Of a DNA stretch of 8,824 bases, positions 1 to 8,824 are shown piece after piece. The position numbers and the translations under genes were made by a program. This DNA comes from a virus (taxonomy: Duplodnaviria; Heunggongvirae; Uroviricota; Caudoviricetes). Under the pieces are notes generated by a model. That model was not told the DNA's origin, did not search any database, and saw only the letters and a list, made by a program, of their open reading frames with translations. Each line of letters starts with the position of its first letter. Position 1 is the stretch's first letter. The DNA lies in IMG/VR virus record IMGVR_UViG_2681813234_000007; one strand, written 5' to 3'.

Positions 1-216
1 AATATAGGGGCAAATCCAAAAATCTATCGCATTGTAGAACGTACCAGTACATCAATTACTATTTTTCCTGTCTTACAAAATACAGTACAGGCAAGCGAGA
101 TTATTAAATATAACAATCTGATGATCGAAGCAGTACTGGACCCTGATAATGACTATACATTGCCAGTCGGTAACATAATGAATATGACATTTAAGGCAAT
201 GGAGAATATTACATAA
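1..216 (+). CDS. 3' end of an upstream tail-module gene (5'-truncated by window edge); product unassigned
   Basis: Frame 1 is open from nt 1 to a TAA at 214-216 (about 71 codons, below the ORF-track cutoff). The stop overlaps the ATG of the next gene (TAATG), consistent with translational coupling into the tail-tip operon. Confidence 0.45.
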   Translation, partial: NIGANPKIYRIVERTSTSITIFPVLQNTVQASEIIKYNNLMIEAVLDPDNDYTLPVGNIMNMTFKAMENIT

Positions 217-838
217 TGAATGATGCAGTTTTTACTAATGCCAATCTATTGAAGTACTGGAAGTTAGTTAAAGGTACGACGAAGACACGATTAACACTAA
301 TGGATGTAATGAGCTTGGGTGTACAGGTAACTTGCTTTGATGTACTGCCAAAAGGCACAAATGGTTTTCACTGGACAGACTCACTTATAGATATCAATTT
401 AGATGGTTATCAATATATTAGTTTCCCCGATATTATCAGTGGTTCACTTCCTTCCTATTCAGAACAAAAGGGCATCACGAATGATGCTATCAACTTCAAA
501 GTCAGTAATGTGAATCAATCAGTACGTGCACTTGCATTAGGTGGATTTCTTAAAGATGCTCAGATGAATATCAAATTAGTAATCTTGAATCCATATGACA
601 GTACTGTAATCGATTCAATGCTTATGTTTTCAGGATTCATTGATTACGTTCAGGCAGTAGCAGACCCAAATCAGAAAACTAACGAAATGACGATATACGT
701 TAACAGTGTATATAAAAAGCTAGACCGACAGCCAGCCTTAATTGCTGCTAACTCAGTATATCAATCTTACTACAAAGGTGATGAGTACTTTAGTCTGTTA
801 GGGCAAGTTAATCAAAATCAAAACTGGAAGTACAAATA

Positions 839-839
<1 letters not shown>
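216..839 (+). CDS. phage minor tail protein in the lambda gpL position (tail-tip complex); function assigned by synteny only
   Basis: 207-aa ORF. ATG at 216 overlaps the upstream stop; GGAGA at 201-205. Its stop overlaps the next ATG (TAATG at 837-841). It lies directly upstream of the K-position and J-like genes. I recognise no specific motif. Confidence 0.75.
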
Positions 840-4436
<3,597 letters not shown>

Positions 4437-4445
4437 TAAATATCA

Positions 4446-4462
4446 AGGGGATAATTTCCCCT
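4446..4462. other. short stem-loop (AGGGGA-taatt-TCCCCT) in the J / downstream-gene intergenic region
   Basis: Perfect 6-bp inverted repeat with a 5-nt loop, 10 nt after the J stop. There is no following T-run, so it is not a canonical intrinsic terminator; possibly an mRNA processing or stability element. Confidence 0.3.
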
Positions 4463-4481
4463 ATGACGTAAAGGATTTAAT

Positions 4482-4778
4482 ATGGCACAAGGATTACAAT
4501 GCTGGAATAGTGCAGGGGTATTAGTAGTAGATCTCGGTGATTATAACATGCGGTATATGGGTACTTACTCAATTACTGCTACTACTGCATCAAGTTATAC
4601 TGTTACTGTACCCGGAATGAAAACAACAGGGTGGATTGCCTATTACGCACCATCTACGGATGTTTTTAATAATTGGTCTGTTATTTGTAATAATGGTTCA
4701 ATGACTATCATTTATCTACCAACGGGATCACCGTTTGCTGGTACGTATAGTTTCAACGTATATAAGTGGACGGTGTAA
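4482..4778 (+). CDS. small beta-rich tail-associated protein (candidate fibre/receptor-binding accessory), 98 aa
   Basis: AAGGA at 4471-4475, 6 nt before ATG 4482. Composition is rich in T/S/G/Y/N with no long hydrophobic helix. The N-terminal motif GLQCWNSAGVLVVD is shared with the next gene. Position is immediately after the J-like gene. Confidence 0.65.
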   Translation: MAQGLQCWNSAGVLVVDLGDYNMRYMGTYSITATTASSYTVTVPGMKTTGWIAYYAPSTDVFNNWSVICNNGSMTIIYLPTGSPFAGTYSFNVYKWTV

Positions 4779-4779
4779 T

Positions 4780-5436
4780 ATGTCAGGTTTTGAAGTTTAT
4801 AATTCTGCGGGTGCTCTGACGATTGACAGTACTAACAAGTCAATTCTCACAGGTGCTGTTAAGGCAATGGGTACACTGACGGATCAGGGGTACTACACTG
4901 GCTTTACGTGTGCTTTTGGTAATGGTGGTGCTCTTGGCTTCTTGCCACTTGCAACTATCGTGAACAGGAACACTACGCAGTACTGGTTTCAGATACAGAA
5001 AGATGGTGGCTGGTGTTTTCCCGGTGCTGAGTTGTTCCAGCCGGGGATAGGGCGATTCATGACGAGTACGCACACTGCAACGCCTACGTCTGGTTATCTC
5101 GATGTGTTTAATGCTTCTGGTACTTTGATATGGTCTGCTGCATCGGCGGCTACCATGCCCCGTATACAAGGTTTCTTAACCGTACCTGCTGCAACAGATT
5201 TGAGTACTGCAATCACAGTAACAAGCCCTGTTGCTAATCCCTGGTTTTGCTGGTCACAATGTCCGGGTAACTTAAGTGATGATGGGGAAACAATCGGTTA
5301 TTCGGGAATAGTTATTCGACGTAATAGCAGTACTTCATTCAGCTTGCAGTACGTTTCAAAGAACCAGAAAACATATCGTCAGGCAATGGGTAACAATGGA
5401 TTTCAAATTGCATTAGCTACTTTCACCGGATATTAA
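4780..5436 (+). CDS. tail-associated beta-rich protein, paralogous to the preceding gene, 218 aa
   Basis: The ORF track gives 4735-5436, but the ATG at 4780 sits 1 nt after the stop of the previous gene (TAAtATG) and begins MSGFEVYNSAGALTID, matching the N-terminus of the 98-aa protein. The motif recurs internally as DVFNASGTLIWS near residue 108. Confidence 0.75.
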   Translation: MSGFEVYNSAGALTIDSTNKSILTGAVKAMGTLTDQGYYTGFTCAFGNGGALGFLPLATIVNRNTTQYWFQIQKDGGWCFPGAELFQPGIGRFMTSTHTATPTSGYLDVFNASGTLIWSAASAATMPRIQGFLTVPAATDLSTAITVTSPVANPWFCWSQCPGNLSDDGETIGYSGIVIRRNSSTSFSLQYVSKNQKTYRQAMGNNGFQIALATFTGY

Positions 5437-5476
5437 CAATAAATATCATTATAAGAATAATAATAAGCGAGACAAT

Positions 5477-5743
5477 ATGGACATTGGTACAATCTTGGCT
5501 CTTATTATTTCTGGCTGTGTACTTCTGTACACAATATTCCGCGACAATACAAAAGATACTGATGGACTACTTACACGTGTTTCAGAACTGGAAACTAAAC
5601 AAGCAGTACAGGAAAGTAGTATGGTGCGTATTGAAGCTGATCAGAATAAGATGCGTGATGCTTTAACTAAACTTGAAAACCAGATTCATGATCTGGATGT
5701 GAAAATTGAAAAAATCATTACCATTCTTGAACAGAAACAATAA
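5477..5743 (+). CDS. membrane-anchored coiled-coil protein, 88 aa (possible lysis-associated protein; function unknown)
   Basis: N-terminal hydrophobic helix (ILALIISGCVLLYTIF) is followed by a highly charged heptad-like segment (ELETKQ...LENQIHDLDVKIEKIITILEQKQ). The gene ends 8 nt before a strong terminator and lies convergent to the endolysin. The Shine-Dalgarno is weak. Confidence 0.6.
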   Translation: MDIGTILALIISGCVLLYTIFRDNTKDTDGLLTRVSELETKQAVQESSMVRIEADQNKMRDALTKLENQIHDLDVKIEKIITILEQKQ

Positions 5744-5750
5744 GAAGAAA

Positions 5751-5780
5751 GGCGATAGTACATAATGCTATCGCCTTTTT
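5751..5780. terminator. bidirectional rho-independent terminator between the convergent 88-aa gene and the endolysin
   Basis: GGCGATAGTA-cataa-TGCTATCGCC forms a 10-bp stem (one G-U pair) with a 5-nt loop, followed by TTTTTG on the plus strand. On the minus strand the same hairpin is followed by TTTCTTCTT. The stop codons of both flanking genes (5741-5743 and 5782-5784) abut it. Confidence 0.8.
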
Positions 5781-5781
5781 G

Positions 5782-6231
5782 TTATTTGTTGGTTAGTACT
5801 GCAATCATTGCATCAACACGATTAGGTGTTTGTTTATACCATAATGAATCTTTAGCCTGTCTGATGGCTTCCGGGTAATCTTTTGCTTTAAGGGCTACTA
5901 ACATCTTTTTGAATTTCTGTACCCCGCCTAAACCTAACTGGAACATCATTATCACAAGAAAATTTTTCCAGTCGTCAGGTAGCCAGATGTTGAGCGTTTC
6001 AACATTATGTATTGCAATAAGTATATCCTGGTCCAGTAGTCTATCTGCTTGCTCAATAGTAATACCATCTGGATACTTTTCACCAACATGTAGTAAATGA
6101 CCGTAGCCAATGGTTTCAAATCCTAGTGAATCTTTGTATGTCCAAAATTTGTTATCGTGAAAGTACTTCAATTTTGTTTGATAAGCGATAGTACCTTCAT
6201 ATTCTTTTAATCTGTCTTTTAGTTTACTCAT
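5782..6231 (-). CDS. endolysin, T4-type lysozyme (glycoside hydrolase family 24 muramidase)
   Basis: 149-aa minus-strand ORF. The translation aligns by eye with T4 lysozyme as I recall it: FETIGYGHLL vs YTIGIGHLL; LVIMMFQLGLGGVQKF vs LINMVFQMGETGVAGF; WYKQTPNRV vs WYNQTPNRA. Equivalents of the catalytic Glu/Asp/Thr are present (E12, D34, T40). AGGT lies 9 nt upstream of the ATG on the minus strand. Confidence 0.93.
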   Translation of the reverse strand: MSKLKDRLKEYEGTIAYQTKLKYFHDNKFWTYKDSLGFETIGYGHLLHVGEKYPDGITIEQADRLLDQDILIAIHNVETLNIWLPDDWKNFLVIMMFQLGLGGVQKFKKMLVALKAKDYPEAIRQAKDSLWYKQTPNRVDAMIAVLTNK

Positions 6232-6282
6232 TAATAAATACCTATAATAAATCTATATAGGGATATTTATTGTGAGAGTTAA
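6222..6282. promoter_or_regulatory. candidate divergent promoter region between the endolysin and the plus-strand operon
   Basis: Plus strand has a perfect TATAAT at 6243-6248 but a weak -35 (TTTACT at 6222-6227, 15-bp spacer). Minus strand has -35 TTAACT (plus coordinates 6277-6282), a 17-bp spacer and -10 TATATA (6254-6259). AT-rich DNA yields such matches easily, so this is tentative. Confidence 0.3.
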
Positions 6283-6721
6283 TAAAGCATGGGAGATGTT
6301 CGATACTGATATGTGGGATATGTCAGAAGTAACAGATGGGAATTACGTCTCGTTTATCTACATTATTCAGTTTCCAGATACTGGCGAGTACTATTTCGGT
6401 AAGAAGCAAATCTATAAAAAAGTACGCGACATAAAGAATTTAAAGGCTACTTCAGTTGAATCGAACTGGCCTGATTATACCGGTAGTAGTAAGTGCGTTA
6501 ATGAAATGATTGATGCCGGAATGCCATACACCAAAAAGATTTTGTACTGTGTCAAATCAGACGCAGAGGCAACGATTTTAGAAACGGCATTGATTAGCTA
6601 CTTTGGTTTACATCCTGACTGTTTAAATAAGGCAATAATGTGTAAGGCACGATTACCAAAGAATCGTTTAGATTTATTTAAAGTACTGCAAGATCTAATT
6701 GATATGTTGGGTGTGAGGTAA
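6272..6721 (+). CDS. GIY-YIG nuclease-domain protein (standalone catalytic domain, EndoII/Seg-like), 149 aa
   Basis: Degenerate GIY-YIG core: FIY (res 28-30), 10 residues, YFG (41-43), Arg52, Glu104 in ILETALI and Asn119. The spacing mirrors my recollection of I-TevI (Y6, Y17, R27, E75, N90). The track start is a GTG at 6272 with AGGGA at 6259-6263; alternative ATG starts at 6296 or 6314 are possible. Confidence 0.6.
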   Translation: MRVNKAWEMFDTDMWDMSEVTDGNYVSFIYIIQFPDTGEYYFGKKQIYKKVRDIKNLKATSVESNWPDYTGSSKCVNEMIDAGMPYTKKILYCVKSDAEATILETALISYFGLHPDCLNKAIMCKARLPKNRLDLFKVLQDLIDMLGVR

Positions 6722-6725
6722 ATAC

Positions 6726-7286
6726 ATGACAAGAATAACGGGTATAGATAACGCCACGAACTATATACAAAAAACAGGAACGAAGTTAGGTAAAAAGTTC
6801 CATGATGAAATCATCAAGCGTTCAAGAGTATTATCTATGAAAGTACAGGCAGATATGAACAATGCCGTAGACAAAGGTGCAGTACCTTTCACTCAACGAT
6901 CAATTCTATTCTTTTATAAAAAGCGGGGTAGTGGGGTTACAGCTACAATCATGGTCAAAGATGTTCAGGCACAGTACTTATATGGTGTACTGGTTGAACA
7001 AAAGGCCATTGATAAATTTGTACCGACTTCAAAAGCAAGACTAACGAAGCAGGGTAACATTAGTGGTCTGAAGAAAAACTTATCAAGTGGACGATACAAG
7101 ATTGTCAAAGGTAAGAACGGAAAAGAACGATTAATAGATACTGCTCAAAAGAAAAAACAAAAGCGTGTAATCGGTCTACGGGAAAGTAAACGCCGTAAAC
7201 TAATTTATGATTTCTATCAGGAAGTGAATGATGGTGTGATGTTAGTAATGAGTGGTATACAGGGAACATTCAAGGTAACAAGATGA
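6726..7286 (+). CDS. hypothetical protein, basic (K/R-rich C-terminal half), 186 aa
   Basis: GAGG at 6714-6717, 8 nt before ATG 6726, which is 4 nt after the previous stop. Its stop overlaps the next start (ATGA at 7283-7286). No TM segment and no motif I recognise. Confidence 0.7.
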   Translation: MTRITGIDNATNYIQKTGTKLGKKFHDEIIKRSRVLSMKVQADMNNAVDKGAVPFTQRSILFFYKKRGSGVTATIMVKDVQAQYLYGVLVEQKAIDKFVPTSKARLTKQGNISGLKKNLSSGRYKIVKGKNGKERLIDTAQKKKQKRVIGLRESKRRKLIYDFYQEVNDGVMLVMSGIQGTFKVTR

Positions 7287-7594
7287 ATTTTGATGAACAT
7301 TATGGTGAACTAACCAGTGAGATTAAACTTGATGGTAATACACCAGAGGCTAATAGTATGCCTATTCATAAATGCTTTCTTGGTAATAAGTTCAAGAAGG
7401 TACTAAAGAGTAAACAGATTAATATCGAGCATTTTATGAATGTTTGCTATGAGAAAAAACAAGATATAACGGACGGTTCAGTACTTGCATGGTCACTACA
7501 AGGTGATGAAATGGATGTGTACGTAATCGAACATAAAAAACTATTCGTTAAGGGAAAACACTTTTGGGTGTATTGCGTGGGGATCATTGAATGA
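7283..7594 (+). CDS. hypothetical protein, 103 aa
   Basis: Start overlaps the previous stop (ATGA) and its own stop overlaps the next start (ATGA at 7591-7594). Scattered Cys/His (C31, H50, C55, H84, H93, C98) do not form a canonical zinc motif. Confidence 0.65.
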   Translation: MNFDEHYGELTSEIKLDGNTPEANSMPIHKCFLGNKFKKVLKSKQINIEHFMNVCYEKKQDITDGSVLAWSLQGDEMDVYVIEHKKLFVKGKHFWVYCVGIIE

Positions 7595-7881
7595 TTGGAA
7601 TGATAATTGATTTAATCAAAACTGGAGTAGGCTTCTTCCAGAAGAAAGAACAAAGTAAGCAAGAGCTGGACGCACAGAACAGCCATGAACAGAACCAGAT
7701 CACACTTGAAGAAACGCGTAAGGGCTTCACTTGGCGACAGGGCTTAGGATGGGTACTGACGTTCATCATTCTATGGAACTACGTCATTGTGCCAGTACTG
7801 GCCTTATGTGGTGTAGTACTCCCCATCGTTCCACTTGATGAGATATGGAAAGTACTGATAATCTTAATCGGCGGGAGTTGA
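7591..7881 (+). CDS. small membrane protein, 96 aa (holin-like architecture, not confirmed)
   Basis: GGGGA at 7579-7583 with coupled ATG at 7591. A short hydrophobic N-terminus and polar linker are followed by a ~45-residue hydrophobic block (GLGWVLTFIILWNYVIVPVLALCGVVLPIVPL...ILIGG) that could form two TM helices. It lacks the charged C-terminal tail typical of holins. Confidence 0.65.
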   Translation: MIGMIIDLIKTGVGFFQKKEQSKQELDAQNSHEQNQITLEETRKGFTWRQGLGWVLTFIILWNYVIVPVLALCGVVLPIVPLDEIWKVLIILIGGS

Positions 7882-8571
7882 TTTGGACTCTCTAAACAAT
7901 ACTCGCCACGAAGTAAGCCATACTGAAGGGAGAATTTGGGTAAGTGCGAAGGCAGGTTTGAAACTCAAATTATTAAATTCCCAATTTTTCTTACGTGCCA
8001 TACCATTTACATCTTGATATGTGTTAATCATTTTATCGCTAATGATAATAAAATTGTAGTAATGTGTTATACATTTTTCAAGTTCGTTAGACTTGTTTGG
8101 ATGTACTTCAATGTCCCAAACTCGTAATATATCTAATTGAGATTTCAATTTAATTAGGTGATCTTTATAATCAGCATGCAAATCTTTAACCTTTGAGTTT
8201 TTACTTTGGTACTCTTTATCGGTGATGTTGAGATCTTTATTACCTAATGTTTCATACATATCATTGATGTAAGTATGTAATATTTCCGCCTTTACTTTCG
8301 CTTCAATAAAGTAACTAATATAAACGTTTGCTTGTTCAAAACCTTTTTCATTAAGTTTTGAATCTAACCATCTATATACTTTAAAAACTGTGATGAATGC
8401 TATTACTGACATTATAGTATCCATGATTGCTGATGTAGTAGAGCTATCATAACCATGAAGTAATAGTAAATCGGAATAAATTGGTATCAATGCACCAATA
8501 GCAAGACATGCAATATGTGAAAATCTTATTTTATTTCTTATTCTTTTTAAATTCACTTTCAAAGCATCCAT
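7864..8571 (-). CDS. membrane protein with two N-terminal TM helices and a ~170-aa C-terminal domain, 235 aa; function unknown (candidate accessory/moron gene)
   Basis: A long ORF in the most AT-rich part of the window, where chance ORFs of this length are unlikely. Hydrophobic segments are FSHIACLAIGALIPIYSDLLLL and IMDTIMSVIAFITVFKVY, and the remainder is K/N/D/E-rich. No clear Shine-Dalgarno precedes the ATG (plus 8569-8571). The 3' end overlaps the convergent 7591-7881 gene by 18 nt. Confidence 0.72.
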   Translation of the reverse strand: MDALKVNLKRIRNKIRFSHIACLAIGALIPIYSDLLLLHGYDSSTTSAIMDTIMSVIAFITVFKVYRWLDSKLNEKGFEQANVYISYFIEAKVKAEILHTYINDMYETLGNKDLNITDKEYQSKNSKVKDLHADYKDHLIKLKSQLDILRVWDIEVHPNKSNELEKCITHYYNFIIISDKMINTYQDVNGMARKKNWEFNNLSFKPAFALTQILPSVWLTSWRVLFRESKSTPAD

Positions 8572-8584
8572 ATAAATTTATTAG

Positions 8585-8613
8585 AAAGCCTGTATCTAGC
8601 ACAGGCTTTTTTT
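8585..8613. terminator. hairpin with flanking A- and T-tracts between the two minus-strand genes; canonical terminator in plus orientation
   Basis: AAAGCCTGT-atctagc-ACAGGCTTT stem followed by T7 (8607-8613) on the plus strand. On the minus strand it is preceded by A7 and followed by TTTCTAATAAATTT. It lies directly between the stop of the 8615-8824 gene and the start of the 7864-8571 gene. Confidence 0.55.
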
Positions 8614-8614
8614 G

Positions 8615-8824
8615 TTACCAATCCCAACTAACAGTAATATCCAACCCACGAAGGTTAGTATGTTCTGTACGCGTCGCTACGAGAACTATATCACCAGTTT
8701 CTTTCGAGACAATATCAAAGACTTCAATTTCAGTTTGACCCATTGTACCTTTCGTTCTAAAACTCTTTCTAACGTAGGTATAGTTCTCTTTTGGATAATT
8801 ACTTTCAAACAGCGATTCAGTCAT
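8615..8824 (-). CDS. 3' portion of a minus-strand gene, probably 5'-truncated by the window edge; product unknown
   Basis: Open minus-strand frame from the window edge to a stop at 8615-8617. The ATG exactly at 8822-8824 may be internal. The translation is beta-rich and polar (…IEVFDIVSKETGDIVLVATRTEHTNLRGLDITVSWDW) and I do not recognise it. Confidence 0.5.
   Translation of the reverse strand: MTESLFESNYPKENYTYVRKSFRTKGTMGQTEIEVFDIVSKETGDIVLVATRTEHTNLRGLDITVSWDW

Follow-up and report, generated by a model that had tools for sequence, protein, structure and literature searches.

What do two small genes placed directly after a central tail fibre gene do for the phage that carries them? We addressed this question in a stretch of 8,824 nucleotides (nt) of the IMG/VR record IMGVR_UViG_2681813234_000007 (Caudoviricetes), hereafter the window, which open reading frames (ORFs) and profile matches mark as a siphovirus tail-tip and lysis region; its source element is an Enterobacteriaceae prophage, a lambda/T1-like siphovirus. 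A J-like central tail fibre or tail tip protein (J) of 1067 amino acids (aa) is encoded at 1233–4436 (+ strand; Pfam Phage_Tail_Tip 4e-20, Phage-tail_3 and fn3; phrog_31, "central tail fiber J", 6e-59), and behind it lie gene A (4482–4778, +), for a protein of 98 aa, and gene B (4780–5436, +), for a putative receptor-binding protein (RBP) of 218 aa. Our findings support, with moderate confidence, a model where A and B form a distal host-recognition module on the central tail fibre. The locus type and its host-recognition role are already known, and the window is a further example.

A hairpin-led unit in A and B

A and B are translationally coupled and co-oriented with J: an AAGGA ribosome-binding site lies 6 nt upstream of the start of gene A, and the TAA stop of A and the ATG of B are separated by 1 nt. 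The sequence-only reading, an earlier inspection made from the letters of this DNA, had taken the two products for paralogues with a common N-terminal motif, and formal comparison bears this out: A 4–17 (GLQCWNSAGVLVVD) and B 3–16 (GFEVYNSAGALTID) are identical at 7 of 14 positions, with a BLOSUM62 score of 42 that was reached in 0 of 20,000 shuffles of B (P<5e-5). The sequences quoted in that reading are exact, but its start of B is not; the ATG stands at 4780 (218 aa), and a longer ORF call would start at the TTG at 4735. Likeness between the whole proteins is uneven. Pairwise BLASTP of A against B is weak (E 0.01), and the profile-profile alignment of the two families joins only residues 1–20 with 1–19, about 19 columns, although at an E of 5.8e-5 (probability 65%); the A family against the N-terminal half of B gives an E of 6e-6 (probability 85%).

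The motif had also been claimed to recur inside the longer protein, near residue 108. On the sequence of B alone this part is marginal: B 106–119 (YLDVFNASGTLIWS) is the second-best motif site in B, with a score of 19–20 and a shuffle P of 0.07–0.08, and hhalign recovers it at E 0.0035–0.014 across 12–14 columns. The internal copy is nonetheless credible, because phrog_2427, a unit profile and family conservation agree in register. First, phrog_2427 matches A 1–76 (8e-9), B 106–175 (4.6e-3) and HK639 gp25 102–177 (4.7e-4) in one register. Second, a hidden Markov model (HMM) of the unit, built from 116 single-unit A-like proteins (the A family and a scan of 1.8 billion cluster representatives), matches B twice, at 2–22 (E 1e-3) and at 107–195 on profile positions 5–83 (E 5e-4), both being single-comparison E-values. 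Third, the B family shows some of its strongest conservation in the stretch around 106–119, with S104 and G105 invariant and L107, D108, V109, G114, L116 and W118 nearly so. A and B are apparently built from one unit of ~100 residues led by a conserved beta-hairpin, present once in A and twice in B; that B would be two A-like units rests on these profiles and on the matching strand counts of AlphaFold2 (AF2) models.

The AF2 models of both proteins are confident (pLDDT 90.1 for B and 83.7 for A) and almost all-beta, as the sequence-only reading had expected, and both open with a beta-hairpin that scores lower (pLDDT 67–77) than the body. The predicted fold of B appears to resemble chain C of 9RPT, the solved LptD-binding RBP of Oekolampad, an experimentally verified RBP that binds the extracellular face of its receptor, a likeness that favours the proposed function. 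A search of PDB sequences with the A and B profiles gave only noise (antibody Fabs, EF2458). In BFVD, the A model is weakly like proteins of ~95–135 aa from Pseudomonas, Acinetobacter and Sphingomonas phages, some annotated "tail fiber protein", and like N-terminal parts of larger fibres or spikes, such as the pectate-lyase tailspike of phage Minorna (E 1e-4 to 5e-2 and TM 0.4–0.6 for the set). These model likenesses hint that the unit may serve more widely as an N-terminal attachment domain.

Scans of local Pfam and NCBIfam copies, the former lacking PF28254, assigned no family to A or B at cut-off, and a DUF1513 match (E 0.03) was dismissed as falling under the family cut-off. A precomputed PF28254 hit is attached to 120 of 120 B homologues among the matches listed, and B matches phrog_4524 across residues 1–217 (E 1.3e-58). 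A matches phrog_7961 (1.2e-15) besides phrog_2427, and is a homologue of T1 gp32 (N15 gp22), HK639 gp24 and bas10_0026; its profile retrieved 112 cluster representatives at E<=1e-3, mostly of 90–105 aa, and the family has 18 invariant columns, most of them in residues 1–27. Several large matches of the A profile, to a 601-aa repetitive protein, FG-GAP repeats and Ig-like repeat proteins, were set aside as low-complexity or without relevance. The pairing of the genes is regular: in 78 of 80 IMG/VR loci a B homologue is abutted by an A-like ORF of 96–100 aa that starts M-x-QGLQCW(D/N), and in these 80 loci a J-like ORF ends just upstream of the pair wherever the flank is long enough. The E. coli 14EC007 prophage carries an intact A homologue of ~99 aa (MAQGLQCWDASGRLIVD...; 21893–22198 of our locus L003) between annotated J and B, where RefSeq has no coding sequence, an indication that annotation may systematically overlook small A-like genes.

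Conserved segments and variable bodies

Where is the module conserved, and where does it vary? Proteins 99–100% identical to B and A are carried by E. coli genomes, and the closest complete-genome relative of the window is a prophage remnant of E. coli 14EC007 (NZ_CP024131) between yeaG and mipA, at 78% nucleotide identity; phage records hold no near-identical DNA to the window, and distant blastn matches to them fall only at the 3' end of J. We compared the window, segment by segment, with close (14EC007, L015, L018) and distant (L052, L053, L077) relatives. Identity is 80–89% in the close and 39–56% in the distant set for J 1–800, and 67–85% and 27–32% for J 801–1007; the last 60 residues of J (1008–1067; 4254–4433, +), hereafter the J tip, keep 78–85% and 65–75%. 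The same alternation runs through the two small genes. A 1–27, the conserved hairpin segment (MAQGLQCWNSAGVLVVDLGDYNMRYMG; 4482–4562, +), is 78–81% identical in close and 63–74% in distant relatives, and the hypervariable body that completes the single beta-sandwich unit of A (28–98; 4563–4775, +) 31–35% and 24–35%. B 1–17, with the first hairpin motif (MSGFEVYNSAGALTIDS; 4780–4830, +), stands at 94% and 65–76%; B 18–100 (4831–5079, +), the most variable part of B and a candidate receptor-facing region, at 49–52% and 30–39%; and B 101–130 (5080–5169, +), which holds the second motif and the conserved stretch after it, at 77–80% and 73%. Across relatives the J tip stays 65–92% identical where J 801–1007 falls to 27–32%, and A 1–27 stays at 63–96%. 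Thus the J tip, A 1–27, B 1–17 and B 101–130 form a co-conserved set, and the bodies of A and B (B 18–100) are divergence hot-spots within otherwise conserved tail modules, the A body being the most variable segment of the whole module.

This pattern reaches well beyond the lineage of the window. Against HK639 and Bas10, respectively, A 1–27 is 70% and 52% identical and the A body 25% and 28%; the corresponding values are 82% and 65% for B 1–17, 27% and 24% for B 18–100, and 63% and 73% for B 101–130. The J tip of the window is 63% identical to that of HK639, 58% to that of IsaakIselin, 42% to that of T1 and 35% to that of Rtp, whereas outside the tip J shows ~20% identity to each of the four, and the tip is the only DNA-level similarity to A/B-carrying Drexlerviridae. 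The J of IsaakIselin resembles T1 J at the N-terminus (73% identity) but carries a tip of the type seen in HK639 and the window. Across families, the J tip type goes with the type of A/B cassette and not with the phage: the same cassette and tip occur in the lambdoid HK639, in Drexlerviridae and in the lineage of the window, with J proteins otherwise ~20% identical. Comparison of the locus across relatives lends support to the earlier proposal of a common anchor, and we infer that the J tip and the three hairpin segments may form a conserved interface that carries two fast-evolving surfaces.

The location of that anchor is less simple than first proposed. A common N-terminal docking segment on the tail tip remains plausible in view of the co-conservation with the J tip and of the precedent of LptD-type RBPs, where conserved residues lie in a hairpin-rich base that holds the N-terminus and is proposed as the tail attachment site (PMC13035648); a simple N-terminal tag is not what we find, since the motif is also internal (B 106, T1 gp31 ~112), and it marks at least a repeated fold unit. 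This raises the possibility, which we regard as doubtful, that the motif is merely the first beta-hairpin of a duplicated beta-sandwich, conserved for folding, and that attachment to J runs via other surfaces. The internal copies in B (106), in T1 gp31 (~112), in a three-unit metagenomic protein discussed below (108 and 200) and possibly in Rtp44 (116 and 210) fit such an account, as does the generic structural character of the hairpin pattern phi-x-phi-aromatic-D/N-x-x-G. Conversely, conservation in the hairpin segments greatly exceeds that in the remainder of each unit, the segments follow the J tip in lineages with almost nothing else in common, and in the monomer models the N-terminal hairpin falls below the bodies in pLDDT, as expected when a partner is missing; all three speak for a contact and against folding alone.

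We also looked for the motif in J itself. In the window, the C-terminal hairpin of J (1050–1063; 4380–4421) scores 6.4 against a mean shuffle maximum of 6.2, which is not above chance, and this candidate was rejected. In T1 J, the last hairpin (1151–1164, TISVRDASGRLRVQ) is the top-scoring motif site in 1172 residues and lies 22 from the end, a P of 0.07 making it only suggestive.

Related cassettes and their receptors

The locus downstream of gpJ has been described as a "bona fide RBP locus", with IsaakIselin targeting YncD (Maffei 2021, PMC8594841), and the pair in the window is adjacent to the 3' end of its J-like gene in the same manner (J stop 4436, A start 4482). A recent preprint defines a YncD-specific RBP family by >30% amino-acid identity and >99% coverage (bioRxiv 10.64898/2026.04.02.716166). 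B is 39.3% identical to the B-like protein of IsaakIselin over residues 1–218, with 100% coverage, and by this published rule it would belong to the family that marks YncD-targeting Drexlerviridae. The YncD-type locus (bas10_0026 and bas10_0025 of IsaakIselin/Bas10; NBD2, IME347 and Henu7) and HK639 gp24/gp25 hold the same two families in the same order as the window, an A-like protein of ~100 aa and then a B-like one of ~215 aa, to which the B and A of the window are 39–42% (full length) and 28–37% identical, and they share with it the hairpin motifs and the J tip sequence type. The pair follows J in HK639; in Drexlerviridae it lies next to J but convergent to it and with a third, signal-peptide gene, whereas in the window it shares the orientation of J, and a transmembrane (TM)/coiled-coil gene and a lysozyme gene come after it. 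The closest characterised relatives of A and B bind outer-membrane proteins, not glycans. As B 18–100 is only 24–27% identical to its YncD-type counterparts, the receptor in the window may differ from theirs. Taken with the fold of B and the divergence of the bodies, the published locus and the 39% identity to the IsaakIselin protein give good support to the host-range role that the sequence-only reading had suggested for the two genes.

A second cassette, of the FhuA type, occurs in T1 and also in N15 (gp22/gp23), HK022 and phi80. It has the same layout of one unit and then two directly after J, with proteins of 101 and 229 aa: T1 encodes ST32 (gp32, 101 aa, MAYGISTWDANGV...), ST31 (gp31, 229 aa, with an internal WGMAIWDASGKLVL at ~112) and then cor, and the T1-type motif reads GxxxWDASG. 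A aligns with the T1 gp32 family by hhalign (probability 90%, E 1.5e-6) and by HMM over 86 residues (E 2e-9), and the A-like unit also has a match in the second unit of gp31 (E 6e-6); between the B and gp31 families, alignment is confined to the hairpins (E ~1e-3). The T1 type differs in being tied to the Cor lipoprotein and FhuA and in its J tip, which is of a different type (42% identity). A pair of the gp32/gp31 type is present in 51 of 53 related IMG/VR loci, and ST31 homologues in 350 phage records, including N15, phi80 and HK225. Candidates for a BtuB-type locus were set aside, MZ501078 being a T7-like phage and JakobBernoulli and Henu8 carrying the T1-type cassette.

The company of cor bears on a different account, in which A and B are not virion proteins but host-cell, membrane-associated ones that aid superinfection exclusion, like the role assumed for T1 gp32/gp31 beside cor. 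The KanT1 paper assumes such a role from the linkage to cor (PMC13164509), the Drexlerviridae cassette is transcribed with a signal-peptide or lipoprotein gene and convergent to J, and in one phage the pair sits among early/replication genes (PJNS034, below). We consider this very unlikely for the window. A and B have no TM segment and no signal peptide or hydrophobic N-terminus (Kyte-Doolittle 19-residue maxima 0.79 and 1.34) and no PADLOC defence match; the features of a Cor/Llp-type exclusion protein, a signal peptide and lipobox on a lipoprotein of ~60–80 aa when mature, are absent from both, and sizes and folds differ. Here the two genes are coupled to each other and co-oriented with J, no cor-like lipoprotein gene follows them, the predicted fold of B appears to match an RBP that binds an extracellular receptor face, and the J tip co-varies with the cassette type, which would be unexpected for an exclusion factor. 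One B-carrying viral contig (L066) has, right after B and on the opposite strand, a lipoprotein-like gene of 108 aa (6642–6968, -; MKKIHSILIILMLSACSS...), the position of cor in T1; its product is a candidate cognate exclusion protein, with no counterpart in the window.

Is A then a part of the recognition surface, or only a helper of B? Small genes beside fibre or RBP genes often encode chaperones, as do lambda Tfa and T4 gp38/gp57, and B alone might be the receptor-binding protein, with A an assembly chaperone or adaptor that folds or attaches it and makes no host contact. The preprint terms such neighbours "accessory proteins" (bioRxiv 10.64898/2026.04.02.716166), and LptD-type loci have a single RBP of 311 aa and no small partner, which is thus dispensable in that design. 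We judge this account unlikely: the body of A is the most variable of all, 31–35% identical where J keeps 80–89%, which fits a diversifying surface better, and A is made from the same unit as B and encoded before it, not after. An adaptor that stays in the virion would be compatible with all these points. Since the body of A is the most variable segment, we lean, with modest confidence, towards placing A within the exposed recognition complex over a role purely as chaperone.

LptD-binding RBPs (Rtp44 and RBPOeko; DUF6453, PF20051; PDB 9RPT, 9RPW and 9RQI) differ from A and B in being one chain of 311–321 aa without a small partner gene. Rtp44 and RBPOeko start MAQGIYID and MGAGILID, with motif-like copies near residues 116 and 210. 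Their sequence kinship with A and B is not significant: neither A nor B matches PF20051 at E<=0.1 (Rtp44 scores 1.4e-113), hhalign of the B and Rtp44 families gives E 0.04, and A and B against LptD-type profiles give E 0.04–0.08. A three-unit reading of Rtp44 is unsupported by self-alignment of its family (E 0.31), and a fission or fusion that would make A unit 1 and B units 2–3 of Rtp44 finds no significant profile match (E 0.04–0.25), the alignment of T1 gp31 to Rtp44 1–139 pointing the opposite way. A broader idea, which we regard as rather doubtful, would make the FhuA-type gp32/gp31, the YncD-type A/B and the LptD-type DUF6453 proteins one superfamily of hairpin-led beta-sandwich units of ~100 residues, with a functional tip always of three units, either split as 1+2 between two chains (A+B; gp32+gp31) or all 3 in a single chain (Rtp44/RBPOeko; P0266), whose three hairpins would form a pseudo-threefold base on the three C-terminal tips of trimeric J. 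If true, it would remove the mismatch in symmetry between the receptor binder, which is asymmetric, and its trimeric fibre. P0266 is a metagenomic protein of 313 aa with three copies of the motif (residues 4, 108 and 200; L139 5120–6061, JGI metagenome 3300051398), and the A-like HMM matches its units one and three (4e-17 and 2e-7); it follows ORFs of 538 and 307 aa on a contig where no J-like gene is recognisable, which extends the range of the unit beyond J-type tail tips.

Two further systems help to picture how the module would work. T5 pb5 is a monomeric FhuA-binding RBP attached non-covalently to the tip of a trimeric central fibre; its tail-proximal part is disordered in receptor complexes (PMC12685063). 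It shares with the proposed A and B the working principle of a dedicated RBP at the tip of a trimeric central fibre, but no fold or sequence match; it has 585–640 aa, is encoded away from the tail operon and comes with the exclusion lipoprotein Llp. In lambda the LamB receptor-binding domain lies within J, whereas the J of the window ends in a short conserved tip and recognition appears delegated to separate proteins. In the model that we favour, B, probably with A, would be mounted on the tip of the trimeric J fibre by non-covalent contacts, with the conserved hairpins as its J-proximal base, and the variable bodies of both proteins would reach a receptor among the outer-membrane proteins. 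By the published family rule this receptor would be YncD; the variable region differs, so another one is possible. Swapping the cassette and the J tip together would then change host range.

Several observations weigh against a recognition module mounted on J. A literature search for virion proteomics of A and B homologues, NBD2 included, found nothing usable, and in the cryo-electron microscopy structure of the T1 tail tip the C-terminus of J and gp31/gp32 are unresolved (PMC11945409). B 18–100 is only 24% identical to the YncD-linked protein, and the hairpin, being also inside B, cannot be simply an N-terminal docking tag. In Escherichia phage PJNS034, of 65.7 kb, the pair lies among replication genes (DNA polymerase, exonuclease), ~16 kb from the tail genes, and the cassette of Drexlerviridae converges on J; the pair is thus not co-transcribed with J in every phage. 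The PJNS034 pair (PP391266.1 6983–7935; L142 4995–5947) encodes proteins of 96 and 221 aa, MSVRCWNAAGKLVADVGDYN... and MSTIQLRNSAGAITVDS....

Neighbourhood and significance

The pair stands in a late-gene setting. Upstream of J are genes for a tail protein (216–839) and a DUF6950 protein (839–1240). The 45-nt spacer between J and A holds a G+C-rich inverted repeat (GGGGA-n-TCCCC, 4444–4463), picked up in a scan for terminator-like sequences, with no T-run after it on the + strand. Downstream of B, the gene at 5477–5743 (+) encodes a protein of 88 aa that has one strong TM segment at its N-terminus (Kyte-Doolittle 19-residue maximum 2.35) and a coiled coil; phrog_1009 (function unknown, E 1.4e-3) is its sole family match. 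A terminator-like hairpin with a 15-bp stem (5746–5780), the first on the + strand in the scan, separates this gene from a convergent lysozyme gene (5782–6231, -). The ribosome-binding site of A, the 1-nt gap between A and B and this hairpin suggest that a single late transcript covers J, A, B and the 88-aa gene. The 88-aa gene is kept after B in the clade of the window, followed by the lysozyme gene, and its product is probably part of the neighbourhood and not of the recognition module. In five relatives (L012, L041, L052, L053, L057) the lysozyme gene is co-oriented and directly after the TM protein, a holin-endolysin-like arrangement; in the window, the 5746–5780 hairpin could serve as terminator for both strands. 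Just past the lysozyme gene, within the prophage late region, lies a gene for a SegE-like GIY-YIG homing endonuclease (6272–6721; Pfam 8e-15, PADLOC HEase 1e-4), and further small genes follow it. The G+C content of the window (1–8824) is low and uneven for an E. coli element, 0.28–0.38 in the flanks and the lysis/accessory region and 0.40–0.47 over J, A and B.

What does the locus add? The hairpin-led unit common to an RBP and its small partner and the co-conserved set of J tip and hairpin segments appear to be absent from the papers that we consulted; the same appears to hold for the homology of YncD-type and FhuA-type cassettes, as proposed here from profile comparisons, and for the fold link of B to an LptD-type RBP, as predicted by the model. 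A unit common to families published as "unrelated" is a modest new point; it ties together three cassette types, which in recent papers are either called unrelated or gave no fold hits. The cassette after gpJ is used in current work to predict which outer-membrane protein a small siphovirus needs, and the window adds to its known carriers a prophage lineage where the cassette is co-oriented with J and where J shares only its last 60 residues with theirs. The comparative pattern suggests that the small "accessory" protein A contributes a variable portion of the recognition surface and is no bystander. With the J tip and three hairpin segments co-conserved and two bodies hypervariable, it also indicates where receptor-engineering swaps should be cut, and it gives a testable model of how a monomeric receptor binder may be mounted on a trimeric fibre.

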